Assembly (NCBI GenBank): GCA_017509755.1
Contig: JAFWOY010000027.1
Location: 1,983 to 65,982, forward strand
DNA length: 64,000 bases
From: Bacteroidales bacterium
GTDB taxonomy: Bacteria > Bacteroidota > Bacteroidia > Bacteroidales > UBA932
Direction: 5' to 3'
Shown here: in pieces, positions 9,252-28,500 of the stretch
How the letters are laid out: every line of letters begins with the position of its first letter
Numbering within the stretch: position 1 is the first letter of the stretch
Program-made: the position numbers and the translations under genes
The notes under the pieces: generated by a model
Database searches by the model: none
Told to the model about the DNA's origin: nothing
Seen by the model: the letters and a program-made list of their open reading frames with translations, nothing else

Positions 9252-12200
9252 ATGAAACGGATTTTGCTTCTGTTTGCCGCCGTGCTGGCTGTCACTGCCG
9301 TATCGGGGCAGAACCTTCGTTTTGCGAGTCGTCCCTCACTTTCGCCAGACGGTCAGACACTTTATTTCTCATACCTGGGTGATATCTATACGGTCCCTGC
9401 CACTGGCGGACAGGCCATGAGCCTTGTCGCCATGCAAGGGAAGAAGAATCATCCGCTCGTGTCTCCGGACGGAAAATGGCTTGCCTTTTCTTCTGATATC
9501 AATGGAAACCAGGATGTATTTGTCGTTCCCGTAGGGGGAGGACAGGCTGTCCAGCTGACATATCACGAGGCCAATGATTTCCCGGTCTCCTGGTCGCCCG
9601 ATGCGAAAACCCTCTATTTCGAGTCCCAGCGATCAGGTTCACGCCGGACGACCTATTGTGTATCCGTGACGGGCGGTACGCCGCAACTGCTGTTCGATGG
9701 TTATTTCACGACCGTGGTCAATCTGGTCGAGAATCCGAAAGACGGTACGTTCTATTTCAATGAGTCGGCCGAGAGCATCAATTTCCCGACGCGCAAACGC
9801 TATGTCGGCGACCATAACCCGAATATCCAGTCGTGGAATCCCAAGAAGAGACAATACGCCGCGCTGACGGACTATGAAGGCAAGGACACATGGCCGATGG
9901 TCGATTCCAAAGGTACGCTGTATTATGTAACCGATGAACTGAACAAGGAGTCGAACATCGTGAAATACGTTCCGGGGGAGAAACCCGCCTATCTGACACG
10001 TTTCAACAGTTCGGTCCAATATCCGCGCATCGCCTGGAACGGTTCGAAGATCACGTATCTGCTCGATTATGAGATTCACGTGCTGGATCCCGCCAGCGGG
10101 AAAGATGTGGTTCCCCACATTGTCGTGACCGCTCCGGATCCTTCGGTCCGCAGGTCGTTCGAGAAACAGAATCCTTCTGCCGGAGCGGTTTCGCCCGACG
10201 GCAAGAAACTTGCTTTCGTCGTCCGGGGTTTCCTGTATGTAACGGATACCAAGGGCAAATTCTTCCAGCGTATGGCAACGCCCGATGATGAACGCGTTCA
10301 CGAGGTCATCTGGGGCGCTGACAACAAAACCCTCTATTACACCCGGACCCAGCACGGCTGGGTGGATCTGTTCCGCATTTCAGCCGACAACAAGGGCACC
10401 GAAACGGTCGTCTATACTTCGCAGGCCAATGTCAAGAGTTTAACGGTGTCGCACAAGGGTGACAAGATCGCTTTCGTTGATGGAAGCGACCGCGTCATGC
10501 TGTACGATGTGAAAGCCGGAACGACCGAAAAGATCGCGGATGCCGAGTTCTGGTCCTTCCAGCAATACGACCTTTCGTTCTCGGGCGATGACAGTTGGCT
10601 GGCTTTCGAGGCCATGGACCGTTTCGAGCCCGACATCTTCCTGTATTCGTTCGCTGACAAGAAACTACTGAACCTGACGCACTCCGCTTCGACCGAGCGG
10701 GAGCCGGTATTCTCGCCCGACGGGAAATATCTGTATCTGATCGCGTCCCCGACAACCTCCTCATTCCCGCGTGGTTACAGCGGACAGCTCTACAAACTGG
10801 CCCTGCAGAAATACGACACGAAATTCAAATCCGATACGTATGACCAGTTGTTCGACGCCAAGAAACCATCCAAGGATTCAGTCGTACGCATCGACACGAA
10901 GGATATTTTCGAGCGAATGACCCCGGTTGAACGCAGCGGCCGCCAGATGGGCCTGCACCTGTATCAGGCCAAGGGAAAGACGCTGCTGCTCTACACGTCC
11001 TTCTCGGACGGAGTACGCGAGGTTCGCGCCCTGGACATTGATGACCCGGAAGCCAGGCCGAAGGCCATTAAAGGTCTTGCTCCCGGTGCTTTCTTCAGTT
11101 CGAAAGAAGGTCTCTATCACCTGACACGCGGCAAGGTCAACAAGATTGATCCGAATTCGTTGAATGCGACGGAGGTCCCGGTTACTGTCAATGTGGACAA
11201 GACGCTTTCCGACGAATTCTCCCAGATGTTCTATGAGACTTGGGCGACGTTGGCCCAGAATTTCTATGATGTCAACTACCACAGTGCTGATTGGACGGCA
11301 GTCCGCGACCGCTATGCGGCATTCCTGCCTGATATCAAGAGCCGGGACCAGCTCCGTACCCTGATGGCTGACCTGTTGGGCGAACTGAATTCCTCTCACC
11401 TGGGTTTCAATTCGATGGGGGCAGAAGAAAGGACCGAGACCCGGATGCATTCCATCGTAACGGGCATCCTGTTCGACAACAAGGATCCTTATGTCGTGGC
11501 TTCCATCCTGCCCGGATCGACCGCCGATAAAGTTGAAATCGACATTCGGAAAGGCGACCGCCTCGTGGCTGTCGATGGCGTACGTACCATGCCTTCAGTC
11601 AATCGCGAGAAATATCTCTCCACGCCCTTGCAGAAAGAGGAGGTGAAACTCACGTTCAATCGTTCCGGCAAAGAATTCGATGTCAAGGTCCACACCATGC
11701 CGCAGATGGCTTTCCGCAACCTGCAGTACAAACAGTGGGAAGACGCCTGCAAGGCTAAAGTGGAGAAGGATGGAGCAGGGAAGATCGCTTATATCCATAT
11801 GCGTGCGATGGGTGGGGAAGACCTGGATTCCTTCCTTACGCAGATGCACACCTATGCGGTTAACCGGGATGCCCTGATTCTCGACCTGCGTTACAATAAC
11901 GGCGGCAACGTGCATCAGGAGGTCATCGACTTCTTGCGACAGAAACAGCACTTCCAGTGGAGTTACCGCGGTTTTGCCAAAGTGTCGCACCCCAACGTAA
12001 CTCCTTCAGACAAGCCGATCGTCGTGCTTGTCAACGAACACAGCCTCAGTGACGCGGAAGTGACTTCCAATGGTATCCAGACGCTGGGCCTGGCCAAACT
12101 TGTCGGTACGGAGACCTATCGCTGGATCATCTTCACTTCGTCTGTCGGTTTGATTGACGGTTCGTCATCCCGCATGCCGGCTTGGGGCTGCTACAACAAC

Positions 12201-12341
12201 GCGGGGCAGGACCTCGAATTCCTGGGCGTCAAGCCGGATATTTATGTGAAGAATACCTTCAAGGACCGCATCACAGGTGCTGACCCGCAACTGGATGCCG
12301 CCATCAAAGAAGTTCTCAGGCAACTTAAGGAAAACAAATAA
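9252..12341 (+). CDS. Tricorn-protease-homologue type S41 peptidase (beta-propeller + PDZ + S41)
   Basis: Signal peptide. TolB-like propeller repeats (SPDGQTLYFSY, SPDGKWLAFSS, SPDAKTLYFES, SPDGKKLAFVV, SPDGKYLYLIA). S41 core LILDLRYNNGGNVHQ and VVLVNEHSLSDAEV. Confidence 0.8.
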   Translation: MKRILLLFAAVLAVTAVSGQNLRFASRPSLSPDGQTLYFSYLGDIYTVPATGGQAMSLVAMQGKKNHPLVSPDGKWLAFSSDINGNQDVFVVPVGGGQAVQLTYHEANDFPVSWSPDAKTLYFESQRSGSRRTTYCVSVTGGTPQLLFDGYFTTVVNLVENPKDGTFYFNESAESINFPTRKRYVGDHNPNIQSWNPKKRQYAALTDYEGKDTWPMVDSKGTLYYVTDELNKESNIVKYVPGEKPAYLTRFNSSVQYPRIAWNGSKITYLLDYEIHVLDPASGKDVVPHIVVTAPDPSVRRSFEKQNPSAGAVSPDGKKLAFVVRGFLYVTDTKGKFFQRMATPDDERVHEVIWGADNKTLYYTRTQHGWVDLFRISADNKGTETVVYTSQANVKSLTVSHKGDKIAFVDGSDRVMLYDVKAGTTEKIADAEFWSFQQYDLSFSGDDSWLAFEAMDRFEPDIFLYSFADKKLLNLTHSASTEREPVFSPDGKYLYLIASPTTSSFPRGYSGQLYKLALQKYDTKFKSDTYDQLFDAKKPSKDSVVRIDTKDIFERMTPVERSGRQMGLHLYQAKGKTLLLYTSFSDGVREVRALDIDDPEARPKAIKGLAPGAFFSSKEGLYHLTRGKVNKIDPNSLNATEVPVTVNVDKTLSDEFSQMFYETWATLAQNFYDVNYHSADWTAVRDRYAAFLPDIKSRDQLRTLMADLLGELNSSHLGFNSMGAEERTETRMHSIVTGILFDNKDPYVVASILPGSTADKVEIDIRKGDRLVAVDGVRTMPSVNREKYLSTPLQKEEVKLTFNRSGKEFDVKVHTMPQMAFRNLQYKQWEDACKAKVEKDGAGKIAYIHMRAMGGEDLDSFLTQMHTYAVNRDALILDLRYNNGGNVHQEVIDFLRQKQHFQWSYRGFAKVSHPNVTPSDKPIVVLVNEHSLSDAEVTSNGIQTLGLAKLVGTETYRWIIFTSSVGLIDGSSSRMPAWGCYNNAGQDLEFLGVKPDIYVKNTFKDRITGADPQLDAAIKEVLRQLKENK

Positions 12342-13814
12342 ATGAAATCATTGCGCTATACCCTGGCAGCAGCGGTTCTCCTGCTGGCCCTGCTGCCAGC
12401 CTTCGCCCAGCGAGGCAGTCAGCGTCCCCGGACCCCTGAACAGGACTTCCTGGACGCCATGTTTGACCATATCAAAGGCGTTGAAATATTCGATTGTGTC
12501 CGCATCCTCTCCGATTCCACACTGTTCCAGGGCCGCCTCAGCGGCTCTCGGGGCATGCGCCGGGCCGTGGACTGGGTCAGTTCCCGTTACGAGGAAATCG
12601 GCTTGGAAAAAGTTCCTGGCCTTTATGGCTATGACTATTCGTACCCGGTGGAGTGCACGGAGGTGACAGGACCGTGTGAAGTATCTGTTGACGGTCGTGT
12701 CTGCACTTGGGCCCTGGAATGGTACGCTGGAGGCACATCTGCCAACGGAGTAGCGGAAGCAGAGATCGTCTTTGCCGGTTTTGGCGTTTCAGCACCGGAA
12801 CTGGGTTATGACGACTATGCCGGCATCGATGTGCGGGGCAAGATCGTGTTGATAGAAGGGGAGACCCCCAACACCAGTCGCAACGACGATACGCTCCGCA
12901 TCTGGTATCCGTACACACTCCACCAGTATAAGGTGGCTAATGCGGTCGCCCACGGGGCCATCGGAATGCTCTATCGCTGGGTTCCCGGTCCGAACAACGG
13001 CTACGATCCTTCTTTCGTGTACGCCTATGTGACTGACGAACTGGCCGATGAGATTGTGGCCGGAAAGGCGGACCATTTCCAGTCGCTGATCCGGGAGCTC
13101 CGGAGCAAGAAAAAAACCGCCTCCTTCGCCACCGGCAAGAAAGCCCGGATCCAGATGACGATGACGCACCGGACCAATGCTTTGGGGCATAACCTGCTGG
13201 GTATGGTCAAAGGCAGCGATCCGGAACTATGCGATGAGTATGTGATCCTGTCGGCCCACTTGGACCATCTGGGCATGATTCCCTATCACATCGCCGGGGC
13301 CAATGACAACAATTCATCGACCGCCTGCTTGCTGGCTGTCGCTAAAGCGCTGCAGGCCAGCAAGGTCAAACCGAAGCGCAGTGTCATTTTCCTGTCGCTC
13401 GACGGCGAGGAAGCAGGCCTGACAGGCAGTTTGTATCTGACCGCCCATCCCGTAGTGCCGGCCGACAAAGTCAAGTTTATCCTGAATCTCGAACAGATCG
13501 GTATCGGCAGGGCTTTTTCCGTTGGATACAAATACGATGCTCCGGAAATCATCGACTATGTGAAAGAAGCCAACGAAAAATACATCCACAGACCCTTGTC
13601 GTTTTACCCCAACCGCTATGTGACGCGGCCGCGTACCGATGGCGCCGTGTTTATGAAAAACGGCTATCCAACCGTTGATTTCTATTCGGTCGGCGGGCGG
13701 TCTTATTATCATGAACCGCGTGACAGCTGGGAAATCCAGGATCCGTCTACGTTGCAGGATGCGGCTCGAGCGCTTTTCTGGAGTGTGATCAATGCCGCCA
13801 ATGCTGTTAACTGA
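12342..13814 (+). CDS. M28 family metallopeptidase (secreted)
   Basis: Signal peptide. M28 metal-ligand pattern SAHLDHLG, GANDNNSSTACLLAVAKAL, LSLDGEEAGLTGS. Confidence 0.8.
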   Translation: MKSLRYTLAAAVLLLALLPAFAQRGSQRPRTPEQDFLDAMFDHIKGVEIFDCVRILSDSTLFQGRLSGSRGMRRAVDWVSSRYEEIGLEKVPGLYGYDYSYPVECTEVTGPCEVSVDGRVCTWALEWYAGGTSANGVAEAEIVFAGFGVSAPELGYDDYAGIDVRGKIVLIEGETPNTSRNDDTLRIWYPYTLHQYKVANAVAHGAIGMLYRWVPGPNNGYDPSFVYAYVTDELADEIVAGKADHFQSLIRELRSKKKTASFATGKKARIQMTMTHRTNALGHNLLGMVKGSDPELCDEYVILSAHLDHLGMIPYHIAGANDNNSSTACLLAVAKALQASKVKPKRSVIFLSLDGEEAGLTGSLYLTAHPVVPADKVKFILNLEQIGIGRAFSVGYKYDAPEIIDYVKEANEKYIHRPLSFYPNRYVTRPRTDGAVFMKNGYPTVDFYSVGGRSYYHEPRDSWEIQDPSTLQDAARALFWSVINAANAVN

Positions 13815-13864: not shown

Positions 13865-16840
13865 TTACTTGTATAGCACCGTCGACACTGTCGAGTCGTA
13901 TTGGAAATTCGCGATGGATTGGCCGTTTTTCAGCCAGATTACAGATAGGGTAGGATTGTTGGTGCAATTCAGATAAGACAACGAGGCATTATTGCTGACA
14001 TCGAGGATGGTCAAACGGTTGTTAGCGCAGTGGAAGTTTTTTAGGAAAGGGCTGCCGCTGACGTCTAAAACAGATAGCTGGTTTCCTCCGCAATAAAGAT
14101 TGACCAACGCACTTTTATTGCTGACATCTAATTCTTTGAGAAGATTGTCGTTACACTCGATATCATAGATTCCGGGATTCTGGCGTAAATCGATGGCAGA
14201 AATCTTGTTTTTGCTGAAGCGAAGGAATTCAAGCTTGGGATTATGACTGACATCCAGGGCGGTCAATTGGTTTTGATTACATTGGAGGCTTTGCAATTCT
14301 GGATTATGACTTAAGTCCAAACCTGTCAGGAGTCCGCGAGCCCGATTAGAAATACTCCTTTGAACAATAATCCTATCTTCTTCATTTTTGTAAATACGGC
14401 TTGCCTCAAAGATTTCACCGCGACATTGCAGATAGCACAGGTACGCATTGTGTGAAAGATCCAATTCTTTTAGGTAGTTAGCTCCGATATCAAGGGTCGA
14501 GAGAAGAGGGTTCTGGCTTAAATCCAGGGACACGAGGTCGTTGTAATAGAGATCTAGTAAAAGCAATTGAGACAGCGGCGTGACATCCAATTCGGTCAGA
14601 TGGCTATAGCTGAGTGTCAGGTATTTTAGTTGGGTGAGTGGCGTCAGGTCCAGAAGGGTCAGGTTCGTATGTGGCGCTTGCAGCCGTGTCAGCCGGGTTG
14701 CTTCACCAAAGAGAAGCTTTTTAATCGGGTTCGCACTACAAGAAAGAGTTTGCAGGTTGCTGTTCTCGGACACGTCCAATTCGACCAATTGATTGAAGTC
14801 ACATTCTAAAACAAGAAGATTGGGGTTATGGGATACATCCAGCGAGACCAACTTACCTGTACATCCACTTGCCTGGGTATACTCGGTCCCGCAACAAATG
14901 AGTTCGCGCAGATTCGGGAAAAACCGAATTTCGGAAATGGAAGTGATCTCGTCCGTACAAATGGATATCTTTGTGATGGCTTCACGCTCGCTTATGGACA
15001 GATGACCATCTTTGTCGGTATCGAAATAAGCAAATAAATAGGTCCTGAAGAATGGATCGGCAACAGGAAAATCCGGATCGTCATCAGGTATATTGCCCTC
15101 TTTAAATGCGATCTTCGAGACCTCTTCATCATACTGCAGGGATATCGACTGTACAGTAAAAAGCCATATTGTCTTCAAGTAAGGATTATTGAAGCACGTG
15201 AGAATACGAAGAGCCAGATTGCCCGATACATCCAGCTCAGTCAGTTGGTTGTCTTCGCAAAGGAGGGCTGTCAGATTAGGGTTTTGACTGACATCCAGCC
15301 TGCTAAGCTGGTTATTGTTGCAGGCCAGCGTCGTGAGGCCAGGGTTGTTCCGTACATCCAACGCGGACAACTGGTTACATTGGCAGGACAGAAATGCAAG
15401 TTTCGGGTTTTGCGAAACATCCACCGAAAGCAGTTGGTTATTATCGCAATTGAGATACGCGAGAGAAGGGTTTCCAGATAAATCCAACTCGGTAAGTTCT
15501 CCGCGACCGCCACCGTCAGGATCGGTTGTACCGGAGCAGATCAATTTCGTGAGTCGAGTGAAATGCTTGACCTCTGTGATCGATCGGATGTTGTCGGTAC
15601 AAATGTCAATGGTGTCAATGGCTTCTACCTCTTCTTTCGATAACCAGTCATTCTTATCTTTGTCGAAGGAAGACAACAAATACGACCTGAAATTCGGATC
15701 GTCAATAGTGATATTAAGATGTGGAATGTCCGTTCCGCGAAATAAAACCGTAGCGATATCGGTGTCATATTGGAGGGAAACCGGTTGCCCCTTGCATAGC
15801 CAAATCTGGGCCAGCAGCGGATTATCGGAACAATCCAGTTCAGCCAGTACCGGATTGTTCGAAGCATCCAGACTGGTCAGCCGGTTGTTCTGGCAATGTA
15901 ATGTTTCCAATAACGGATTGGCGCTGATGTCCAGCGTATCAAGCGAACCTTGACCGGGGGCGGAACCTTGGCAGAATAGCGATTTCAACAAAGGCATCTG
16001 TCGGATTTCAGCGACAGAAGAGATACTGTCCGTACAAACGCGAATTGAAGTAAGTTGACCGAGTTCCCGATAGGAGAACGCGCCATCCCCGTTCAAATCG
16101 TGTTTTTCTGTCAGGTACCGTTCAAAGACAGGATCGGCGATAGGGGCAGGGAAATCTTCCGTACACGTCAAGGACAACGCAGAGGGACTATAGGCATACA
16201 CTTCGTTAGCGGTCTTCTCAGCGTTCTCCGCATATGCTCTGAAATAGTAGGTTTCACCGAATTCCAGTCCGGGAATTCGGGCAGTGAGTATAGAATCCTC
16301 TTCCAACGCGCAGGGTATCCGGTTCTTTTTCATTTCTTTCAAGTCGGGGGTCTTTCCATAGCAAAACCCCGTTTCATTGACGGGCCGGCCCCCATCATCC
16401 AATAGCACAGCGGTCAGGCGACCTTTCTGAAACGAAACCTCGGAGAGTAGCGCTGCGGATGTGGTTGGCATCTGCCGGGTAATCTCTTGGGAATATTTCT
16501 TTCTCAGTGTACTGGCCAGATAAGAGCGGAATACATACTTCATACCCGGTTTCAATTGGAGCGTGCAAGAGAAAGATGTCTCACTGTCTTTGGGTGGGTT
16601 GATAATCAGGGTATCTGCTGTACCGGAGAAAGCGTTTTCGGCAATCTCGAATCCATATTCGACAATATCTGGACGGGGTGTATAGGATCCCGACAACTGG
16701 ATGAACAGACGAGAGGGCATTTCCGGACCAAAACTGATGGTTGGTGGATTCGGCTCATTAGAGGGTGCAACCGGATCGGGCAGGCAAGACTGCAGAACCA
16801 AACTGAGGAATAGAATCAGAAGTCGGGAAAGCGCTTTCAT
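13865..16840 (-). CDS. Leucine-rich-repeat surface lipoprotein with three tandem DxDxDG-loop + LRR modules
   Basis: Lipobox LVLQSC. ATG at 16840 (the ORF-track start 16846 is TTG). Many LDVSxNPxLxxLxCxxNxL repeats. Three modules each open with ADPxFRxYL...D.D.DG...E...I.ICTD and close with IWLxxGQ..SLQYD. Confidence 0.85.
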   Translation of the reverse strand: MKALSRLLILFLSLVLQSCLPDPVAPSNEPNPPTISFGPEMPSRLFIQLSGSYTPRPDIVEYGFEIAENAFSGTADTLIINPPKDSETSFSCTLQLKPGMKYVFRSYLASTLRKKYSQEITRQMPTTSAALLSEVSFQKGRLTAVLLDDGGRPVNETGFCYGKTPDLKEMKKNRIPCALEEDSILTARIPGLEFGETYYFRAYAENAEKTANEVYAYSPSALSLTCTEDFPAPIADPVFERYLTEKHDLNGDGAFSYRELGQLTSIRVCTDSISSVAEIRQMPLLKSLFCQGSAPGQGSLDTLDISANPLLETLHCQNNRLTSLDASNNPVLAELDCSDNPLLAQIWLCKGQPVSLQYDTDIATVLFRGTDIPHLNITIDDPNFRSYLLSSFDKDKNDWLSKEEVEAIDTIDICTDNIRSITEVKHFTRLTKLICSGTTDPDGGGRGELTELDLSGNPSLAYLNCDNNQLLSVDVSQNPKLAFLSCQCNQLSALDVRNNPGLTTLACNNNQLSRLDVSQNPNLTALLCEDNQLTELDVSGNLALRILTCFNNPYLKTIWLFTVQSISLQYDEEVSKIAFKEGNIPDDDPDFPVADPFFRTYLFAYFDTDKDGHLSISEREAITKISICTDEITSISEIRFFPNLRELICCGTEYTQASGCTGKLVSLDVSHNPNLLVLECDFNQLVELDVSENSNLQTLSCSANPIKKLLFGEATRLTRLQAPHTNLTLLDLTPLTQLKYLTLSYSHLTELDVTPLSQLLLLDLYYNDLVSLDLSQNPLLSTLDIGANYLKELDLSHNAYLCYLQCRGEIFEASRIYKNEEDRIIVQRSISNRARGLLTGLDLSHNPELQSLQCNQNQLTALDVSHNPKLEFLRFSKNKISAIDLRQNPGIYDIECNDNLLKELDVSNKSALVNLYCGGNQLSVLDVSGSPFLKNFHCANNRLTILDVSNNASLSYLNCTNNPTLSVIWLKNGQSIANFQYDSTVSTVLYK

Positions 16841-16842
16841 GG

Positions 16843-17700
16843 TCAAAACAATACGCCAACACCCGCGCTGGCTTCGAGATACTTGAACTGATTGGTCCGA
16901 ATACCGGCTGATACGGCAACCGCATTCAATCGAAGCAGAAGACCGAATTCCAACTCAATGCCGGAGAAAGAATGTGTGCTGACACGAGCATACTGGTATT
17001 CCCCAGGGGCCATATACATTTCCCAGGCAAGGACACGGCTGCCATAACCACCTCCAGCATAAAGATATAGGGGGACAGCTAATTGTCTCAGGTAGCCCCC
17101 GGTAATGGCAAAGCGGCTTTTTCGGGAAGCTCCCGTGAACCAGGCTGTTTCGCCATCGACAGTTCCATCTCCTGAACAGTTGGATGATGGTTTGAGCATA
17201 CGATGGAAATCGCTTACGATATGGACATATCCGCCGTTTATTGTGCAAAGACCCAACATCAGCCCATAGGAAGTATGGGGCAGATTATACTGCACGGTCG
17301 GCAAAATGAGGGTATGGATGGGATTTGCGATGTCCAGAGAGAGGGTATAACCATAAGCGGGCATCAGCGGCTTGTCAAGCGGGAAAACAAAGTGTAGAAC
17401 CGCATAGCCGTCTACGCTGATATCAATCCATTTAGAATTGGCCGGTATGAAAACGACCCATTCTCCCGGGTATTGCAAGGGCTCTCCAATGATATTGCCG
17501 GCAAAATGAACGGAATCTTCTGAGGAGAGATAGATACTGATCATAGCAGAGGGTTGGCCGTTCTGATCATAGACCGGGGATGTCTTTGCCCTCAGTTCAA
17601 AAGGATTTACTTCAAAACTTCGTACGAGAAGGCGCTTTTCCTGGGCATGCAGGAAAAAAGGCAGGAAAAGGAATGCCAGCAGGAAAACAGCCTGTCTCAT
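16843..17700 (-). CDS. Exported protein, N-terminal beta-sandwich-like domain + C-terminal OM beta-barrel-like domain
   Basis: Signal peptide MRQAVFLLAFLFLPFFLHAQ. The C-terminal half has alternating hydrophobic strands and Gly/Tyr-rich turns and ends in ...SAGVGVLF (terminal Phe, typical of OM beta-barrels). ATGA overlap with the upstream gene. Confidence 0.7.
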   Translation of the reverse strand: MRQAVFLLAFLFLPFFLHAQEKRLLVRSFEVNPFELRAKTSPVYDQNGQPSAMISIYLSSEDSVHFAGNIIGEPLQYPGEWVVFIPANSKWIDISVDGYAVLHFVFPLDKPLMPAYGYTLSLDIANPIHTLILPTVQYNLPHTSYGLMLGLCTINGGYVHIVSDFHRMLKPSSNCSGDGTVDGETAWFTGASRKSRFAITGGYLRQLAVPLYLYAGGGYGSRVLAWEMYMAPGEYQYARVSTHSFSGIELEFGLLLRLNAVAVSAGIRTNQFKYLEASAGVGVLF

Positions 17701-18695
17701 TTGCCGATTCTGAAACTGTTGATGTCAATAATCTGGTTTTCGTCAAGCGCGCGGGTCCGTTCTTCGTCCATCCAGTAGGGTTGCCAGGTCCTGACGTGGA
17801 TCTGCGGTCTGTCTTCGTCCCTAAAATCCCAGAGCATAAACAAATAGCCTTCATCGGAATAGGGGATACCTCCGTCATAGAGAGATTCATAGCCCTGTTT
17901 TAGAAGAACCCCATAATAACCTTCAATGGAAGGATGCTTTGTTACTCGTATGTCGCTGAAATCAACCCGGATATATTTCGTATGCGGAAAAATGTGCTGT
18001 TTCAGTCTGTCGAGATACGCTTTTTTGGAATGCTTTGTATAAGCGATTTCATCGTTTATAATCGCAGTCCTGTCGCCGCGTTTCCTTTGAATAACCTTCC
18101 CGGTAATGATCAAAGCATCGTCGCTGAACACCATGTCCAGAAAATGGATATCCTTCTTGCAGTATGCTGTACGGAATTGCTCGACATAATCGAGGATCAT
18201 CTGCCGATGCCGCAGGTCGCCCACTTTACTACCGTCCGTCATGATTCTCCTATACAAATGGGAACCGATGGCCATATTGATGCGGGTAATGCGGCCGGAA
18301 CCGTCCATTTCGATCACAAGTTCCTGATAGTCATCGTTTCCTTGAAGATCCCGCATTTGGATTGGTACGTTCCTGACCTGCCAGCCGCCATTGTAGGTCC
18401 CGATAATCCGTTCCACGACCTTCGCTTCGTCACAATGAAAAGGCATGTTATCCCATAACACGATCACAGAAGTTTCGGCGTCTTTCGTAATGGAGACCGC
18501 TGAAAAATCGGGTATGGCGCCTTTCATGTCATAAGCCCGGTTAAATTCTGTCAGCAGCAGGGAAAGGTTGGCGTTGATCTTGTCTTTCAGCGGGCCGTTT
18601 TCCAGGCCGTCATTAATCAGAAAGGTAACCGTCTGCGCAGATAGTGCGGTATGTATGATGAGAAGCGCGACAAGCAGAAAGAAAGATCGTTTCAT
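17697..18695 (-). CDS. Exported hypothetical protein (C-terminal NTF2/SnoaL-like fold suspected)
   Basis: Signal peptide MKRSFFLLVALLIIHTALSAQ. RHRQMILDYVEQFRTAYCKKDIHFLDMVFSDDALIITG resembles the start of NTF2-like (DUF4440-type) domains. ATGA overlaps at both ends. Confidence 0.7.
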   Translation of the reverse strand: MKRSFFLLVALLIIHTALSAQTVTFLINDGLENGPLKDKINANLSLLLTEFNRAYDMKGAIPDFSAVSITKDAETSVIVLWDNMPFHCDEAKVVERIIGTYNGGWQVRNVPIQMRDLQGNDDYQELVIEMDGSGRITRINMAIGSHLYRRIMTDGSKVGDLRHRQMILDYVEQFRTAYCKKDIHFLDMVFSDDALIITGKVIQRKRGDRTAIINDEIAYTKHSKKAYLDRLKQHIFPHTKYIRVDFSDIRVTKHPSIEGYYGVLLKQGYESLYDGGIPYSDEGYLFMLWDFRDEDRPQIHVRTWQPYWMDEERTRALDENQIIDINSFRIGK

Positions 18696-19396
18696 TGTAG
18701 CATTTGCATGATAGTTTTGTCAACAAAAATCCAATAAGCAGGAACCATCCTATATTTCATCGGGTCCGTCAACGATCCGGATCGTATATTTGTCCTTACC
18801 CCCATGGAATCTCTTGGTGACATGATCTCGATGATACGGTCTGAAGAGTGTTCGTAATAGACCAGAAATCCGCCATCCACATATTCCTGGGGTGTCTCGA
18901 TCGTAACCGGTCCCGACATGATATGAGCTTTTGTTCGGGATGTTGGGAGCAATTCCTGAATGTCTGACAGAGTCTCGATTTCGGGCAGCTGGCGGAAAAA
19001 CTCCAGAATGGCATTTCGACTAACATGATCGAATGCCGCCGCTTCAATCTGTTCCAACTCCCGGAGATGCGACTTGCTGATATAAGCAATTGTCCGGTAA
19101 TGATTAGGATCTTTTCTCATCGTGATAAGCTGGATCACCTCTGGCGGACAAGCACTGGCTCCACGAATATACACAAAGCCATTCTCTTTCAGATAATGAG
19201 CCAGACGGTCGTTCAAGTCAAGCGTGGCTTCGACAACGGATTCTTCAAGGTCGGGCATCGTGCAACTGCCATACAGGTAGTCCGGATCAAGCTTGATAGC
19301 AGCCATCCGCGCAAGAAGCGAGTCTTGCGACTGTCCGGCTGCATACTGGAAAAAGAACATTCCGGCAAGAATAAACAGGATTAGTACTTTACGCAT
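18692..19396 (-). CDS. Exported hypothetical protein (234 aa)
   Basis: ATG 19396 gives the signal peptide MRKVLILFILAGMFFFQYAAGQ. The longer ORF-track start at 19510 would overlap the TIR gene by 130 nt and lacks a signal peptide. Confidence 0.65.
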   Translation of the reverse strand: MRKVLILFILAGMFFFQYAAGQSQDSLLARMAAIKLDPDYLYGSCTMPDLEESVVEATLDLNDRLAHYLKENGFVYIRGASACPPEVIQLITMRKDPNHYRTIAYISKSHLRELEQIEAAAFDHVSRNAILEFFRQLPEIETLSDIQELLPTSRTKAHIMSGPVTIETPQEYVDGGFLVYYEHSSDRIIEIMSPRDSMGVRTNIRSGSLTDPMKYRMVPAYWIFVDKTIMQMLQ

Positions 19397-20301
19397 TTTC
19401 CCAGCTGTTTGTCCAACTCGATGTCGGGATAATCGCCCAACTTGATGAACGCTATTTTTTCTCCATCGGCATGGTGCCATTCGCCGTAATTCAGGTGACC
19501 GCGAGTCCAATTTCCAATAATATAATCCCCGACTTCCGCAGTTCGTGCCTGAGGATCGTGCATATCGATACGCCGACGGTGCATAAAGGTGTAAGTGCCA
19601 CTTCCATCGGGCAATCCGGATATGATTGTCCCGGTAAACGTATCGGTGTCAGGGCCCGTACGGGGCTGTTCCTTGACAATTACTATTTGTGGCGGCCTGT
19701 TTCGGATCACTACGGGTTTTTCCACCACGAAGGTATCGAAGGCAGGAGGTGATGAATTCACAGGCTCCGATGCAGGCCGGTTATTTTTGATCCAAGGGGG
19801 CAACAACAAGAAGGCTGCGAGTGCCAAGATACCCAACAAAGGGAGGATGAAAAGCCGTGCTTTATTGCCTTTAGCGGGCGATTCTGAAATGCTGACAGGT
19901 AAATTGCCATTCTGCTGCTTAAGAATGATCTTCTCAAGCACGGCAAAGTCTTTCTTGAAGTCCCCCGAATAGGGGATTCGCTGTTTATAAGAAAGGTAGT
20001 ATTCCAGATCATCGTCGAAGGGCGTATCATCCAGGCAATAGGGGAGAATGAATTTGGAACTGTTGAAGGCCAGGTTGATTTCTGTCTTTACATGCTCCGA
20101 TTGGCTCGCGTTCTTGGAACAGATGACGACAACGAGGAGGGCCGCACGGATTGCACGTGTGATTTCGCCCGCATAAGAGACGCCTGATTGAATGTCGCGA
20201 GGTGCAATCCAGCAGGAAACATCATGTGACTCTAGCCAGTTGCAAAGGGATTCGGCAATCTTCCGGTCCCGCCGTCCATAACTGATGAAGACTTTGGTCA
20301 T
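19381..20301 (-). CDS. TIR domain - single TM - MORN-repeat membrane protein
   Basis: ATG 20301 forms ATGA with the upstream stop. KVFISYGRRDRKIAESLCNWLESHDVSCWIAPRDIQSGVSYAGEITRAIRAALLVVVICSKNASQSEHVKTEINLA is a TIR_2-type pattern. TM helix LFILPLLGILALAAFLLLPPWI. MORN-like YIIGNWTRGHLNYGEWHHADGEKI. Confidence 0.8.
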   Translation of the reverse strand: MTKVFISYGRRDRKIAESLCNWLESHDVSCWIAPRDIQSGVSYAGEITRAIRAALLVVVICSKNASQSEHVKTEINLAFNSSKFILPYCLDDTPFDDDLEYYLSYKQRIPYSGDFKKDFAVLEKIILKQQNGNLPVSISESPAKGNKARLFILPLLGILALAAFLLLPPWIKNNRPASEPVNSSPPAFDTFVVEKPVVIRNRPPQIVIVKEQPRTGPDTDTFTGTIISGLPDGSGTYTFMHRRRIDMHDPQARTAEVGDYIIGNWTRGHLNYGEWHHADGEKIAFIKLGDYPDIELDKQLGKCVKY

Positions 20302-21290
20302 GCAAAATCTTTCCAGCTCAATTTCTTGCCGCAGGAAGGGCAGTATTTCATATTCGGCGCTACCGGCCCTGAACAATGGGGACATTTGTAGCTCTCTCCA
20401 CGTGAGAGGTTGAATCCCAGCTTCTTGACGAGTCTCAGCGCGTCGAAGGCGGTCCGTCTGTCATATTCTTTTTCTGATTCTGGCAAGTCGGAGTAGGGGA
20501 CCATGTCAGGATTCTGCTTCAGCCTGTCATCCCGGAGGGGGCCATAGCTCCAGCCTTCTTTCTTGCGTTCGGCAGCCCATACTTCATGGGTATTTTCCGC
20601 GATGGTTTCAGTCAGTTCAAGCAATTCATCATCGAGCAATACATCTGTCAAATCAATCGGATGTGGATCATAGGCCAAGGAATCGATATCCGAACTAACC
20701 AGATAACGCCGTGAGGCGCGCCATGCTTCCAGGAAATCTTCGATCAGCCAGTCCATGTCTTTTTCTTCAGCCGGATCGTAGATTTTTATCAATCCGCCGA
20801 CCAAAGAGAGCGGGACGACTGCATGAAAACGGTTATCCCGTGCGATGACCGCAATCATTTTCACCCGGCGGAGCATATTGATTCGAATGTCTTCAACCGT
20901 ACAATCATATTTGCGGCAAACTGACAGACCGTGTTGTTCCAGAAGACGGCCGATATTATACAAAGGCATGCCTTCCTTTCGTAGCCAGCGGTTCGTGCTG
21001 ATATCGATGGAAAGAGTATCATCATCTACCAGATAGTCACGCAAGATCCGTTGCTCGCATTGGATGTCGCACAAGTTGTCCTCTGAGGCGGCGGCTAATT
21101 TCGCCATCGGAATACCGGCGCCTTTCGATTCTTCATATCGGTCAATGCAATTGATGATGAACAAAGTCTCACGCAGCGATTCGTCATGTGCAAGTGCTTC
21201 AACCACTCGCATTGTCTCCTCCGGGGTTGTCGTTCCCTCCGTATAGGCCGCTAACAGCTCGTCGGATATTTCGTAGCGATTATTTTTCAT
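20298..21290 (-). CDS. Anti-sigma-like N-terminus + C39/papain-like segment + RyR domain + zinc ribbon (soluble)
   Basis: ATG 21290 overlaps the sigma gene stop by 11 nt. ISDELLAAYTEGTTTPEETMRVVEAL is anti-sigma-like. TETIAENTHEVWAAERKKEGWSYGPLRDDRLKQNPDMVPYSDLPESEKEYDRRTAFDALRLVKKLGF is a near-consensus RyR domain. CPHCSGPVAPNMKYCPSCG is a zinc ribbon. Confidence 0.8.
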   Translation of the reverse strand: MKNNRYEISDELLAAYTEGTTTPEETMRVVEALAHDESLRETLFIINCIDRYEESKGAGIPMAKLAAASEDNLCDIQCEQRILRDYLVDDDTLSIDISTNRWLRKEGMPLYNIGRLLEQHGLSVCRKYDCTVEDIRINMLRRVKMIAVIARDNRFHAVVPLSLVGGLIKIYDPAEEKDMDWLIEDFLEAWRASRRYLVSSDIDSLAYDPHPIDLTDVLLDDELLELTETIAENTHEVWAAERKKEGWSYGPLRDDRLKQNPDMVPYSDLPESEKEYDRRTAFDALRLVKKLGFNLSRGESYKCPHCSGPVAPNMKYCPSCGKKLSWKDFA

Positions 21291-21852
21291 AATACTTGAC
21301 ATCTTTTTGTGCAACTTGCGTGAATTCGGCGATAGCACGCCTTTTAATGTTGTAAAGTGTCGCAGCCGTGATCTTCATTTCATTGGCGAGCTTTTCCGGC
21401 TCCATGTCATTAAGGATCAATTGTTGAAGAACATAGGCGTACCTTTTGTTTTTCATCCGGTGCAAGATCCGGAGCATGTCTTTCCTCGCAGTATCGCGCG
21501 TAGGGCCATCGGCCAATTTTTCTTCTGCTACTTTGTCCAAAAGAGCATCCTGGCTACGTTTCTCTGCCAGATTGTCTCTTTTTTTGATAAAAAAACGAGT
21601 TGCACTGACTTTTATCCAGCCAAACAGCGAACTACGATCCCGAATTTGACGGAGTCTGTAGCCATCGTTCTCAAGCAGGTAGGCATAGAACTCACTGACA
21701 GCTTCTTCATACTCGACCGGGTAAGGGAAAACATAATTCAGAATGTTCATTAACAGGAGTTTGCAAGATTTTTCCTTATCGGAAAAAAAGAAATGCCGGG
21801 TAATCCGTTCATCCTTGGAAAGCAGTCCTTCGATGATTTCGGTTTCAGTCAT
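21280..21852 (-). CDS. RNA polymerase sigma-70 family (ECF-like) sigma factor
   Basis: 190 aa from ATG 21852 (ORF-track start 21903 is TTG). Region-2-like SSLFGWIKVSATRFFIKKR. Region-4 HTH-like RYAYVLQQLILNDMEPEKLANEMKITAATLYNIKRRAIAEF. Confidence 0.75.
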   Translation of the reverse strand: MTETEIIEGLLSKDERITRHFFFSDKEKSCKLLLMNILNYVFPYPVEYEEAVSEFYAYLLENDGYRLRQIRDRSSLFGWIKVSATRFFIKKRDNLAEKRSQDALLDKVAEEKLADGPTRDTARKDMLRILHRMKNKRYAYVLQQLILNDMEPEKLANEMKITAATLYNIKRRAIAEFTQVAQKDVKYYEK

Positions 21853-24856: not shown

Positions 24857-25531
24857 CTATAAAACAGCCTTTCGGAAGGGAGCGCTCGCTACTTGCGCGC
24901 CCTTGTTGACATAGAGTGTGATCAGCGAGTCAGCAGCAGGGGCAGCCAGGAGAAACGTATGGGAAACGCTGTCATGCGCCGTATCGATCAGGCGCAGCTT
25001 CTCGGCCGCATCATATCGCCACTTGCCGTGCCCGAACAAGAAGACATACTCCCCTTTTCCCTTTGCCGCCAATTCAGGCAGCGGTTGCGCGAAATGCCAG
25101 GAGACGGTCTTGCCGTCGCCATTGAACCAGAGGGTATCTCGATCGCAGACAAAGGTACCGTTATGTGCGGCCGGAAAGGGCGTTCCCGGATCCGGCGGCG
25201 TATGGGTATAGGAGCAACTGGAAAAGAAACCGATCAGCAGGATGACCAACGGAATGACGATGAAAATCAGGACGAATATCCAGCATCCGATTTTCCGGCC
25301 TTCTTTTTTAGGCGCGGCCTTTCCTTCCGGGCGAGACGGCGCCTTTTTCGGCTTCGGTTCGGGTGTTACTTCCCAGGTGGAGAGCGTAACCACGCCGGGC
25401 GCATCGGAAGCGTGGACTACATCTTTATCACCGGACTGCGGGGTAACCGCGGCCGTCACGCGCGTGCCGCAATTCGCGCAGAATTTGGCGCCCGGTTCCA
25501 GTTTTGCGCCGCAGTTTGTACAGAATGCCAT
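24857..25531 (-). CDS. Zinc-ribbon - TM - extracytoplasmic domain protein
   Basis: ATG 25531 (ORF-track start 25546 is TTG). CTNCGAKLEPGAKFCANCG zinc ribbon, Lys/Pro-rich linker, TM helix IGCWIFVLIFIVIPLVILLIGFF, then a ~110-aa C-terminal domain. Confidence 0.7.
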   Translation of the reverse strand: MAFCTNCGAKLEPGAKFCANCGTRVTAAVTPQSGDKDVVHASDAPGVVTLSTWEVTPEPKPKKAPSRPEGKAAPKKEGRKIGCWIFVLIFIVIPLVILLIGFFSSCSYTHTPPDPGTPFPAAHNGTFVCDRDTLWFNGDGKTVSWHFAQPLPELAAKGKGEYVFLFGHGKWRYDAAEKLRLIDTAHDSVSHTFLLAAPAADSLITLYVNKGAQVASAPFRKAVL

Positions 25532-25538
25532 AATCTGA

Positions 25539-28500
25539 TTAACCAATATTAAACAATGTATCCCCCAACTCTTCCAGCAGTGAATCGCGCGTATAGCCCA
25601 TTCTAGTCAGCATCGCATCCAGTTCCGAAAGTGTACATCCCTTGCTGCCGGGATCGAAGAGTTTCTCACATTCGCTGATAGCCGTACGAAGACGCATCGA
25701 AATCTTACTGCCGCCATTTTCCCCGGCACGGGCGATATCGCGCGGGTTGATGTAATTCTTGAATTGCTTCATGCCCTGCCGGAGTCCTTCCATATATTTG
25801 TTGACGGCTTCCGAACGGAGCGTCAGACGTTCGGTCTCATCCAGGACATTCTCGGCCTGCTTCAGAAGGGAATCTCCCTCCCTGAACCACTCTTTTCCCT
25901 TGTAGGTAACGGCATCCGCCACCTTTTTCGGATCGGACAGTTGCATATGCACCTTCTGGGGATCCATCAGGATGTCGATATCCTTTCCGTAGCTTTCAGG
26001 ATGGTTCAGCACATCTTCGATGTTGGTCTGGTCGATGGATTTGGCAAACTTGTTGGACAGTTCTGCACTCTTGCTCCGGAAGCCCAAGCCCGCATCCGCA
26101 ATCTGATGGTTGTAGATCTGGGTGGTCATATTCTGGTCGAAATACACCTTTTCTCCCTTCGCATTGCGGTAGAAATAGGTGACGTCCCGGTCGATGGTGA
26201 CCTTCTTGCCTTTCCGCATCAGGTCCAGGTCGGCATTCTTGCTCGCATTGAATACCTCAATCCGATCGGCAGGGATTCCGTAGATCTGGCTCAGTGTCTT
26301 CTTGGCATTGAGGTCCGCTTTCGCGTACATTTCCCCCAGCGTCTCATTCAATTCTTTGCGGGTAAGGTCCAAGGAATCGTCCGCATAGTTCTGGAGCAGA
26401 TACATCGCCTGCTTGTTTTTCTGGCATTTGATGACCAGCTGGTTCTTCAGCTTCAGGTTCTCGGGACTCATCGGATTCATGTGGTACAGTTCCACAGCCG
26501 CCTGTAAGTCCTTGACATCCTGCAGCGCACGCTTCCGGCCGTAATCCACCGCATCGTCCAGCGGATTCGGCGTTTTCTGGGACTTGACCAGGTCCATGAA
26601 CTGGTCTGCATTCCGGCTGGCGGCATCCATGGCATTCTTCGAATTCTGGATGGCGTTCTTGGTGACCTTTCCTTTGATGGAACTGAAGAACTCACCGGCC
26701 TCCGCCTTCATCTCCTGGAAGGCGTCTTTCAGGCTATCCTTAGTAATACCGGCCTTGGCGGCCATCTCCCCCACCTTCTTCATTCCGAAGGCCATTCCCT
26801 TCTCCATCAGATACTCCCGGCCAACAATCTTGGCGCCGACGCAGAAACCGCCCCAAACGCTGTCACCGCCCTTGTCCACATATTCCTTCATGCTCCGCGC
26901 TACCTCCAGGGTCGTGAAGACGACATCCGCACAACCCAAAGTAGCCACACCCAAGGCGAGACGGCTGAAGAAGCCCATGGAATCTTCGACCTCTTTCGCT
27001 TTGTCGAAGAAACAGGAGACAAACAGGAGCACCTCATCCGCAATCGTCAGCGGCTTGACGTCTCCGTTGGCCCCGAAACTCTCTCCGGAAACGACACCGT
27101 TGAAGATCCGCTTCACGGTCTCGACCTGCTGGGGATCGTAACCATAGTCGGCACTGTAGCCGTCCACGATCGTATCGATGAACTTGTCGAGCGAGAAGAG
27201 CTGCCGGTACATGTTCAGATAATGGATCTGGCTCTGGATATGAACCAACTGCTCGGAAATGTGCTGATCCCGTTTGAGGGCCTCCATATATTCCGATGTC
27301 GGCAGGTCACGCCGGGGCTGGGAACACAACAGGACGTCCGCATACCCATAATAATCACGCCCGTTGAAGGAAGTCTTCAACATGATCTGGGCCTTGATGC
27401 GGGAAGGAGCGTCAAGCGTGGCCTGGCAGCAGCGGAAGAAACAGAGCCGGGCCCGGTCTTCGATTGTTCCACTGCTTACGTCACACTGGATGGCAAGTTT
27501 GTCCACCATATCCTGCTTGGTGTCATCCAAGGCCACAATCTTGTAGTCAGTCGGGACTGGCGCAATCTCAAGTACCTTGTGCTCATTCTCGTCATAATCA
27601 AAGAGCGTAATCCGGGCCTTGGTCTCGGCGGGCACATAGGTTTTCCCGTCCATGCCTTTCGCGGCAAAACGCCGGGTCTGGTGCCGCGAGGGGTCATATT
27701 CCTCTATAAAACACTTGACCTCATAAATGCCAGCCAGTGCAAGACCCATCTGGAAGCGCAATACTTCCAGCTCGTTCTCGATGGCGCTCCCCTTGCCGCT
27801 CCGGGCCGTCACTTTCAGGGAGTAGCGCTCGAATTCACCAGGCATCAGGGTCGGAACTTTCTCTCCCGGCTTTGGAGGAATAAATTTCTCTGTTATGATA
27901 GCCTCGTGCAGTCGTGTCTCCTTGTTCCACGTCGTTTTCACTTCATAGCGCCCACCCGGAATTACTGCTTTGACCTGGGCTTCCTCATCCATGCCGACAA
28001 CCAGGAACGGCAAATGGATGGGTTTGTCGTACCCCACGGGAATTGTCAGGTTATCCTGGCCGAAGACAATCGCCCCGGCCCTGATTTTGAAATGCACGTG
28101 GTTCGTATAGGATCCTTTCCCACCGGCCAGCCGGAAGGTTACGACACCTTCTTCCGGTGCTTTGTCCGTCTCCGGGGCAACGACATCTGCGGCTTTCCAT
28201 CCTTCATGAAGTGCCGCGTGGGGAGAGACTTGCAGATAATTGTCGCCCGTGACGGTCAACATGGAAGTCAGCTGAAGGTCGGGCGTCTCTTCGCCCTGTG
28301 ACGGAATCTTCACGATCTGGGCATAGACCTGACGAGGCCCGTTGCCGGGAATGAGCGTATCGCCAAACTCCTTGTACATCCGCATCGCATAACGGACAGC
28401 CGGCTGATTGTCTTCTTCCTCTTCTTCTTCCGGTTCTTGATTGCCGGCATCTCCGTCGTCCGATGGCGCGGCCCGGCGTTTTCTCCGTCTGCGGATTGCA

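Follow-up and report, generated by a model that had tools for sequence, protein, structure and literature searches.

A membrane-anchored TIR protein encoded beside a RyR domain in a conserved Bacteroidales envelope operon: a candidate signaling route from envelope to gene expression

Introduction

What might a TIR domain do when it is held in the bacterial inner membrane, behind a module predicted to face the periplasm, and encoded next to a RyR domain? We addressed this question for one gene, here called the TIR-TM-MORN gene (TM, transmembrane), in 64,000 nucleotides (nt) of DNA from a Bacteroidales bacterium of the lineage UBA932 (GenBank assembly GCA_017509755.1, contig JAFWOY010000027.1, positions 1,983 to 65,982 of the forward strand). 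This whole stretch is referred to as the window, and positions are counted from its first letter. Bacterial TIR domains are known as soluble signal makers, as in Thoeris, or as killers that consume nicotinamide adenine dinucleotide (NAD+). To our knowledge, RyR domains were tied to TIR-made nucleotides only in 2026, and only as counter-defense proteins of phages. The locus studied here unites a TIR domain and a RyR domain on a bacterial chromosome, and the conserved pairing of a membrane TIR with RyR in Bacteroidales is the more interesting finding. We conclude that the locus is probably a variant of TIR-based nucleotide signaling, new in combining a membrane TIR with a cellular RyR domain.

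Results

The TIR gene and its family

The gene and the parts of its product are as follows.

19381 to 20301, minus strand: TIR-TM-MORN gene, 306 amino acids (aa), the gene under study
19912 to 20295, minus strand: TIR domain, predicted cytoplasmic, residues 3 to 130; Glu74 at 20080 to 20082, His70 at 20092 to 20094 in place of the Trp of WxxxE
19855 to 19911, minus strand: Pro/Ala-rich low-complexity linker, predicted cytoplasmic, of low model confidence and of variable length in the family, ending in the Lys/Arg cluster KGNKAR
19789 to 19854, minus strand: single predicted TM helix, residues 150 to 171, with flanking charges that fit the positive-inside rule
19648 to 19788, minus strand: Pro-rich low-complexity linker, predicted periplasmic, with a predicted local distance difference test score (pLDDT) of <50; length and composition vary widely among homologues
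19432 to 19647, minus strand: MORN-type beta-hairpin module, residues 219 to 290, followed by a conserved tail with Cys303 (19393 to 19395)

A preliminary description, made from the letters alone, had located this gene and its parts, and its coordinates were all correct; the open reading frame (ORF) is free of stops, and its translation is the 306-aa protein given there. The ATG at 20301 overlaps the stop codon of the upstream gene as ATGA, and homologues begin at the same Met ('M-x-K-V-F-I-S-Y'). Both observations favor 20301 over a longer ORF from 20385, which we consider unused. Two ORFs on the opposite strand (19471 to 19752 and 19595 to 19972) were dismissed because protein-level conservation across homologues is confined to the minus-strand frame.

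A word-indexed search yielded at least 142 relatives of the TIR protein, and the named matches all came from genomes of uncultured rumen or gut Bacteroidales. In the family alignment, full-length relatives were 46 to 61% identical to the window protein; the conservation counts given for the TIR family refer to an alignment of 40 members. The window itself is 99 to 100% identical to the metagenome contig JAEEGI010000397.1. A phage database returned one partial match, restricted to the TIR domain, and thus no sign of a phage-borne gene. Judged by its conservation, the ORF is a real gene that is maintained under selection.

TIR domain and predicted catalytic position

The TIR_2 pattern that had been read in the N-terminal part was borne out: Pfam TIR_2 (PF13676) matched residues 4 to 114 (E = 8.7e-20, 71.9 bits against a cut-off of 28), and the Pfam ThsB_TIR model matched as well (24.1 bits against 21.2). 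Structure prediction with AlphaFold2 gave a pLDDT mostly above 90 over residues 1 to 130, and a Foldseek search of the PDB with this model returned TIR domains as its top matches (SARM1, SPARTA TIR-APAZ, RRS1/RPS4, AbTir, and BtTir; E values of 1e-5 to 4e-4).

Glu74, proposed beforehand as the catalytic residue, aligned with the conserved Glu of TIR-STING ('FEM'), TLR6 ('YEL'), and Cat1 ('DEL') and was invariant (40/40 family members). His70, four positions before it, was invariant as well (40/40), and the motif reads 'SEHVKNE', i.e., HxxxE and not WxxxE. This region, with E74 and H70, is almost unchanged despite an overall identity of 46 to 61%. His70 aligns with the Trp of Cat1 and of TIR-STING, and the window TIR thus has none of the residues W, Y, or F at the position linked to cyclic products. 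In earlier work, W, Y, or F occupied the aromatic position of WxxxE in 12/12 TIRs that make a cyclic product of adenosine diphosphate ribose (ADPR), and the W204A substitution in AbTir lowered 2'cADPR, a cyclic ADPR (cADPR) isomer, from 93% to 24% of product (Manik et al., bioRxiv 10.1101/2022.05.07.491051). Because the invariant His70 sits where cyclase TIRs have the aromatic, a classical cADPR isomer is doubtful as the product, which may instead be linear ADPR or something nonclassical. We nevertheless consider it likely, from the conserved motif, that the TIR domain cleaves NAD+ using Glu74.

Membrane topology

The single TM helix of the preliminary description was found throughout the family, with exactly one hydrophobic segment in 40/40 members (residues 150 to 168/171 in the window protein). 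Its reading of the protein as N-in by the positive-inside rule held too. Over 15 residues on either side of the helix, the mean number of Lys plus Arg across the 40 members was 3.3 before it versus 2.1 after it, and the mean net charge was +2.5 versus +0.3. Lys plus Arg were more numerous before the helix than after it in 30/40 members and less numerous in 1/40. Because TIR strand A begins at residue 3, there is no signal peptide on the TIR protein. The predicted N-in/C-out single-pass orientation is well supported.

A MORN-type module, predicted to be periplasmic, shared with receptor kinases

The C-terminal part had been described as MORN-like repeats, and this held up: the module is homologous to bona fide MORN proteins. 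On its own, the window module lies under the Pfam cut-off. It scored 14.5 bits against the 22.5 required for Pfam MORN (PF02493; E = 0.034), and matches were below threshold in 32/32 family members tested (best E = 8.8e-4). A family profile matched MORN4 in the PDB (6jle; E = 6.7e-4). AlphaFold2 folded the isolated module into confident beta-hairpins (pLDDT of 82.7, predicted template modeling score of 0.76), and hairpins were present in the full-length model too. Foldseek with the full-length model gave TIR domains for all of the top 50 matches, none of them informative on the C-terminal module. With the isolated module, it gave nothing at E ≤ 1e-3, and the weak matches included RSP1 (Foldseek probability of 0.80), junctophilin-2, and radial-spoke head proteins.

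We searched 1.84 billion representative proteins exhaustively with phmmer and examined 118 relatives of the module for domains. The module was found in 328 proteins, nearly always at the extreme C terminus, with relatives reaching E = 5.6e-25; P0365, among the relatives found, scored 36.6 bits on Pfam MORN. Pfam MORN itself matched 36 of the 118 relatives at E ≤ 1e-3 (best, 3.7e-23). The other domains in these relatives were Big_2 (18), Pkinase (17), TIR_2 (5), caspase (1), and Pfam zinc-ribbon families (about 6), and the consensus N terminus of the alignment of module relatives was a zinc ribbon. The kinase relatives P0406, P0408, P0415, and P0385 consist of a kinase, one TM helix, a low-complexity linker, and the module, and the zinc-ribbon relatives carry one or three tandem copies of it.

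Bacterial receptor kinases are built as a kinase, a TM helix, and an extracellular sensor. We call the TIR protein receptor-like because Hanks Ser/Thr kinases and zinc-ribbon proteins end in the same module, which there too follows a single TM helix; this sharing supports the receptor-like reading of the preliminary description independently and is the strongest argument for it. By these sequence relationships, the module is a MORN-type extracytoplasmic cassette common to single-pass signaling proteins with a Hanks kinase, zinc ribbon, or TIR domain.

Within the TIR-linked family, D246, H248, D249, H269, and the single Cys303 are invariant, which suggests a candidate metal or ligand site. In four kinase-linked relatives, both Asp residues are kept, and H248 is replaced in three and H269 in one.

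An animal parallel was also considered. Junctophilin combines MORN repeats with a TM anchor and couples to the ryanodine receptor (RyR); we rejected this parallel as probably coincidental, because here the MORN module would be periplasmic and the RyR domain cytoplasmic.

The upstream genes: a RyR domain joined to a protease-like domain and paired with a sigma-like factor

Directly upstream of the TIR gene lie two genes with the following features (ECF, extracytoplasmic function).

20298 to 21290, minus strand: long-form RyR protein, with an anti-sigma-like N terminus, a C39-like peptidase, a RyR domain, and a C4 zinc ribbon, and without a TM helix
20403 to 20672, minus strand: RyR domain (PF02026); His251/Trp254 (HxxW), Arg269, Asn276, and Asp293 where phage RyR Tad and RyDEP bind glycocyclic ADPR (gcADPR)
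20694 to 21101, minus strand: C39-like papain-fold peptidase; candidate residues Cys90 (21069 to 21071), His172 (20823 to 20825), and Asp188 (20775 to 20777)
21186 to 21263, minus strand: anti-sigma-like N-terminal helix, residues 26 to 51; Pfam zf-HC2 match below threshold
20319 to 20390, minus strand: C-terminal C4 zinc ribbon; C319, C322, C333, and C336 invariant
21280 to 21852, minus strand: divergent sigma-like protein of the ECF type (190 aa, beginning 'MTETEII'); heads the cluster, its stop overlapping the next start

The long RyR protein probably starts at the ATG at 21290, since its homologue P0121 starts at the corresponding Met. The ORF extends to a GTG at 21338, from which the residue numbers are counted; conservation was scored in an alignment of 34 homologues. 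Pfam RyR matched the gene at E = 1e-29 (103.1 bits against 27.4), and the PDB matches of the domain were RyR Repeat12 (E = 1e-59) and 3NRT of Bacteroides thetaiotaomicron.

In phages, RyDEP hydrolyzes and RyR Tad sequesters 2'cADPR, 3'cADPR, and cADPR, and the ligand contacts of the phage RyR domains are a His-x-x-Trp pair, a Lys, a His, and an Asp (PMC13232231; bioRxiv 10.64898/2026.06.04.730250). RyR Repeat12 is described as an ATP and drug binding site (bioRxiv 10.64898/2026.06.04.730250). The window RyR domain was 43.5% identical over its core to gp68 of Pectobacterium phage CB1, and gp68 residues H129/W132/K147/H154/K170/D171 corresponded to H/W/R/N/Y/D in the window. Across the family, no variation occurs at H251 or W254, conservation of D293 is at least 90%, and position 276 is His in most members.

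In the peptidase, Cys90 ('NLCD') and His172 ('FHAVV') are invariant and Asp188 is at least 90% conserved. Matches at E ≤ 1 among the 34 homologues were to Peptidase_C39 (12; best, 1.6e-5), Peptidase_C39_2 (8; best, 5.4e-8), and DUF3335 (10); the window copy fell below Pfam detection and gave a weak NCBIfam C39-ABC match at residues 120 to 202. The zf-HC2 match of the N-terminal helix was weak (E = 0.1 in the window; E ≤ 1 in 10/34 homologues, best 0.0084), and the C-terminal ribbon matched Pfam zinc-ribbon families in 34/34 homologues.

The sigma-like gene preceded the long RyR gene in every long-form locus inspected. TIGR02937 (NCBIfam sigma70-ECF) covered nearly its full model in 6/6 sigma-like homologues, the best at E = 5.2e-7 and all under the 42.9-bit cut-off, with the window copy at 18.3 bits. 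Pfam gave only DUF1492 and one Sigma70_r4_2 match (E = 0.052) for the family, and a profile of it found no match in the PDB.

RyR linkage across loci

We scored RyR linkage with the RyR hidden Markov model (HMM) in 29 distinct assessable TIR-TM-MORN loci. A RyR gene was present in 17/29, and in 14 of those its end lay within 15 nt of the TIR start. These genes had three architectures: the long form; a stand-alone RyR of 106 to 114 aa; and a membrane protein of 676 to 683 aa. The long form and its sigma gene were co-directional, divergent, or downstream relative to the TIR gene. The membrane protein combines 3 to 4 TM helices at its N terminus with two Rossmann-like stretches (GxGxxG) and, at its C terminus, a RyR domain that keeps all five gcADPR contacts. 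Its gene lay directly upstream of the TIR gene in seven loci (L099:3698-5728, L009:2033-4063, L023:180-2216, L026, L029, L039, and L041), and from its predicted domains it could be a RyR-gated membrane effector or channel.

Furthermore, the long-form RyR loci without this TIR all carried other TIR proteins (3/3; L094, L095, and L096). The adjacent TIRs in L094 and L096 and a second TIR in L012 have an N-terminal TIR domain and a TM segment, and the 423-aa TIR in L095 is without one. Four residues ahead of the Glu, the TIRs of L012, L094, and L096 retain W or Y, where the MORN family has His. Because long-form RyR loci carry unrelated TIRs, the RyR association tracks the TIR domain and not the envelope genes.

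Non-MORN TIR proteins beside sigma/RyR modules were seen at L012:8816-9943, L096:10078-11262, L094:10143-12468, and L004:1-716. All have an N-terminal TIR domain and TM segments, some with an outside domain of about 170 aa and others with a zinc finger and four TM helices. Membrane TIRs may, on this predicted architecture, form a broader class. The sigma/RyR module of L095:1-19008 has as neighbors two HipA toxin loci, a second short RyR gene, and genes for a TIR-STAND ATPase and a TIR-kinase-transglutaminase protein; such a neighborhood looks like that of a conflict system, unlike the housekeeping flanks in the window.

One further candidate was set aside. The 420-aa protein upstream of the TIR gene in L003:8696-9958 (the same as L047) looked by eye like a RyR domain carrying an insertion in its C-terminal part ('EHNRW ... 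RPYSDL'; HxxW ... PYSDL). Its match to RyR was not significant (hmmsearch E = 0.0035 in a seven-sequence search; blastp, 0.094), and the locus was counted as RyR negative.

Searches of the literature for RyR together with TIR, MORN, or Bacteroides gave no description of cellular TIR-RyR systems, and the available portions of a 2025 survey of Thoeris (29 effector types) and of its supplements do not mention RyR.

Short stand-alone RyR genes (106 to 114 aa) immediately ahead of the TIR gene recall the layout of an antitoxin and raise another interpretation of the pairing. The TIR might be an NAD+-depleting executioner of abortive infection upon an envelope insult, e.g., phage adsorption or injection, with the RyR proteins acting as buffers or antidotes for stray product as phage RyDEP and RyR Tad do. 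The Foldseek matches, which include the NAD+-consuming TIRs of SARM1 and SPARTA, fit such a role. So do the His and Asp of the RyDEP catalytic dyad, conserved in the neighboring RyR domain, and the sigma/RyR modules that sometimes lie amid HipA toxins and TIR-STAND proteins. Plain NAD+ depletion, however, would need no sponge. Moreover, the long RyR protein with its C39-like protease and sigma-like partner and the 676-aa membrane form look like output devices and not like antidotes, and the operon has stable housekeeping contexts with no defense-system signature around it. We consider an executioner role unlikely and favor a RyR domain that reads the TIR product.

The envelope operon

On the minus strand, a chain of seven genes with overlapping ends runs from 21852 to 13865, in the order ECF-like sigma, long RyR, TIR, g232, g332, g285, and LRR (leucine-rich repeat)/EF-hand lipoprotein. 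The genes downstream of the TIR gene are as follows.

18692 to 19390, minus strand: g232, exported (signal peptide), with a 10-nt overlap between its start and the TIR stop
17697 to 18695, minus strand: g332, exported; C-terminal half NTF2-like, with weak matches to Pfam DUF4440 and Cds6_C
16843 to 17700, minus strand: g285, exported (signal peptide), ending in ...GVGVLF; no Pfam family match
13865 to 16846, minus strand: LRR lipoprotein, 993 aa; Pfam LRR_4 (E = 1.1e-25) and EF-hand families; lipobox ...LVLQSC read from the sequence

We surveyed 32 distinct full-length loci and counted downstream genes in the 26 that had at least 4 kilobases of sequence downstream. g332 and g285 followed the TIR gene in 26/26 of these loci, g232 followed it in 24/26 (tblastn), and LRR/Big_2 surface proteins did so in most. 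When loci were sampled from the g332 side, 3/3 started with a TIR-TM-MORN gene. These results indicate that the TIR gene does not stand alone but heads the structural genes of a conserved envelope operon.

g332 is the most conserved operon protein (about 45 to 62% identity among non-self loci) and has 3950 homologues, one of which is labeled 'nuclear transport factor 2 family protein' by one source. No family match was found for g232 in Pfam, NCBIfam, or PADLOC, and NCBIfam gave nothing useful for g232, g332, or g285; g285 is possibly an outer-membrane beta-barrel, from its sequence. The position of the LRR lipoprotein is filled elsewhere by Big_2, LRR_5, or LRR/EF-hand giants. The LRR/Big_2 component is presumably surface exposed, as the variable part of the operon. 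The lipoprotein of the window has three EF-hand-like DxDxDG loops, each just ahead of an LRR block.

With this conserved set of neighbors, two further interpretations could be weighed. The tightest and most universal linkage of the TIR gene is to exported and surface proteins (26/26, versus 17/29 for RyR). The TIR could accordingly be a nonenzymatic oligomerization scaffold on the cytoplasmic side of a machinery that spans the envelope and serves to assemble, anchor, or export the LRR/Big_2 proteins, while RyR would sense ordinary adenine nucleotides, e.g., ATP. The ATP and drug binding described for RyR Repeat12 agrees with this, as does the TIR domain itself, which lacks the cyclase-type aromatic and whose catalytic-position Glu is kept in nonenzymatic Toll-like receptor (TLR) TIRs. 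However, E74, H70, and 'SEHVKNE' are almost unchanged at 46 to 61% identity, suggesting an active site; RyR genes accompany unrelated TIR proteins in other loci; and the kinases that carry the same ectodomain are signaling domains and not structural anchors. A scaffold is, in our assessment, decidedly unlikely.

The other interpretation needs no partners. The protein would be a self-contained analogue of a Toll-like receptor whose MORN repeats bind an external ligand and whose TIR domain signals by protein-protein contacts, with the neighbors dispensable. The topology of ecto-module, TM helix, and cytoplasmic TIR is supported, and the module occurs in proteins of other contexts. This is hard to reconcile with a TIR gene that is translationally coupled and accompanied by g332 and g285 in 26/26 loci and by g232 in 24, and no TIR-containing adaptor is encoded nearby in the window. 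We rate a self-contained receptor as very improbable and return to a TIR enzyme that works together with its operon.

Flanking genes

Housekeeping genes flank the operon and encode RarA, a MATE transporter, and peptidases. The plus strand at 9252 to 13814 encodes a 1029-aa tricorn-like peptidase (S41/PD40/PDZ) and an M28 peptidase, both ordinary housekeeping proteins. Beyond MATE and RarA, at 24857 to 33257 of the minus strand, there are large ORFs of 229, 1215, 204, and 1155 aa with almost no family assignment; the 229-aa ORF has a zinc ribbon and a hydrophobic stretch resembling a TM helix. PADLOC, run on the neighbors in the window, gave no matches except the TIR domain itself, and the locus did not class as a Thoeris system.

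Discussion

A proposed pathway

We propose that the TIR protein is a single-pass inner-membrane protein, with its N-terminal TIR domain in the cytoplasm and its C-terminal MORN-type sensor in the periplasm, and that it serves as the signal generator of a Bacteroidales envelope operon. An envelope event would be relayed by the exported g232, the NTF2-like g332, g285, and the variable LRR/Big_2 surface lipoprotein. The periplasmic modules would then change their association, and the cytoplasmic TIRs would assemble into an active oligomer. For this part of the scheme, the architecture, the one TM helix with its N-in bias, the ectodomain shared with other signaling proteins, and the operon are supported directly; what is sensed is inferred.

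Once assembled, the TIR would cleave NAD+ via Glu74 and release an ADPR-derived nucleotide, and the co-encoded RyR-domain protein would read that nucleotide. The conservation of the Glu, the linkage to RyR, and the conserved RyR ligand residues are observed; from these we infer the enzymatic activity, the identity of the product, and the pairing of RyR with it. Finally, the reader is fused in this window to a C39-like protease and an anti-sigma-like N terminus, and ligand binding could trigger proteolysis that frees the ECF-like sigma factor and leads to a transcriptional response. The protease triad is conserved, as described above, and release of sigma by proteolysis would be its putative consequence. 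Taken as a whole, an envelope-sensing membrane TIR enzyme whose NAD-derived product is read by a co-encoded RyR domain, and passed in this locus through a protease to an ECF-like sigma factor, has in our judgment an even chance of being right.

Several findings weigh against it. No RyR gene was present in the available sequence of 12/29 loci. The residue four positions before Glu74 is His70 and not W, Y, or F, so that a classical cADPR isomer is doubtful, and the Glu at the catalytic position is kept also in nonenzymatic TLR TIR domains (TLR6) and is no proof of activity. In the clade of the window, moreover, the phosphate-contacting His of RyR is replaced by Asn (Asn276). The sigma and anti-sigma assignments are both below threshold. 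Lastly, with housekeeping flanks and no PADLOC match beyond the TIR domain, a defense role is unsupported.

We also considered a more general form of the proposal, in which a chromosomal trans-envelope TIR-to-RyR pathway operates across the Bacteroidales with RyR outputs that differ between loci (C39 protease and sigma, multi-TM effector, or small buffer protein); we put this forward tentatively, as a possibility that we rather doubt. If true, it would be the first cellular, nonviral role for bacterial RyR domains and a prokaryotic counterpart of the disputed link between cADPR and the ryanodine receptor in animals. With the LRR surface protein of the operon counted in, the pathway would be, in effect, a 'split' Toll-like receptor.

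Significance

This locus puts a TIR domain in the membrane, behind a sensor module that receptor kinases also use, and has a RyR domain that is joined to a C39-like protease and paired with a sigma-like factor. These features suggest an undescribed signaling route from the cell envelope to gene expression. If the chain of events holds, it would provide a new trigger for TIR signaling, from outside the cytoplasm, and a new readout, from RyR to transcription or to a membrane effector. It would also offer a tractable bacterial system for identifying the ligands of RyR Repeat12-type domains, a matter of relevance to the long debate over how cADPR acts on the ryanodine receptors of animals. As the 3950 homologues of g332 indicate, rumen and gut Bacteroidales carry the operon widely, and it probably matters for their envelope biology.

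Comparison with known systems

The preliminary description had set this protein apart from the TIRs of Thoeris, CBASS, and Pycsar. That distinction holds for the architecture; for the logic it probably fails with respect to Thoeris, given the likely signal-reading RyR domain next door. As in Thoeris (ThsB plus effector, types I to XI), a TIR with a Glu at the catalytic position stands beside a domain that, in phages, binds ADPR-derived nucleotides made by TIRs. Unlike in Thoeris, the TIR domain is part of an integral membrane protein that has a predicted periplasmic module, and the putative reader is a RyR domain, which is not among the 29 effector types in the accessible portions of the 2025 survey. 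The predicted output is a sigma factor, the locus lies outside a defense island, and the motif has His for Trp.

The RyR domain belongs to the same family (PF02026) as RyDEP of phage DyoEdafos and RyR Tad (gp68 of Pectobacterium phage CB1), and it keeps the His, Trp, and Asp contacts. The phage proteins are small and act by destroying or sequestering the signals of the host. The window RyR domain, in contrast, is encoded in a cellular genome, shares an operon with a TIR, and is part of a longer chain with a C39-like protease, an anti-sigma-like segment, and a zinc ribbon. Sister loci, unlike the phages, have the RyR domain within a multi-TM protein or on its own.

For the predicted output, the closest logic is that of CalpL-CalpT-CalpS in type III CRISPR, where cA4 activates a SAVED-Lon protease that removes the anti-sigma factor and frees an ECF sigma factor (bioRxiv 10.1101/2024.05.08.593097; PMC11417357). 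The proposed sequence of messenger, sensor-protease, relief from anti-sigma, and ECF-like sigma is the same, by analogy and not by homology. Here RyR would stand for SAVED, a C39-like Cys protease for Lon, and a TIR for Cas10, and sensor, protease, and anti-sigma-like segment are on one chain.

The topological likeness to Toll-like receptors drawn in the preliminary description is apt as far as an ecto-sensor, one TM helix, and a cytoplasmic TIR are concerned. However, the polarity is reversed (N-terminal TIR, type II), and the ectodomain is not LRR; the TIR protein does not have the LRR, TM helix, and C-terminal TIR on one type I chain that define these receptors. The operon does encode an LRR surface protein, but as a separate lipoprotein gene. 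For the TIR, an enzymatic function is more likely than that of an adaptor platform, unlike in Toll-like receptors, and the likeness looks convergent, with no sign of orthology.

With soluble NADase TIRs (SARM1, AbTir, BtTir, and SPARTA TIR-APAZ), the protein shares the fold and the Glu at the catalytic position; it differs in being membrane anchored and in having HxxxE and not WxxxE. On the outer side it is like bacterial receptor Ser/Thr kinases of the PknB type: relatives carry the same MORN-type module with a Hanks kinase, and not a TIR domain, as their output.

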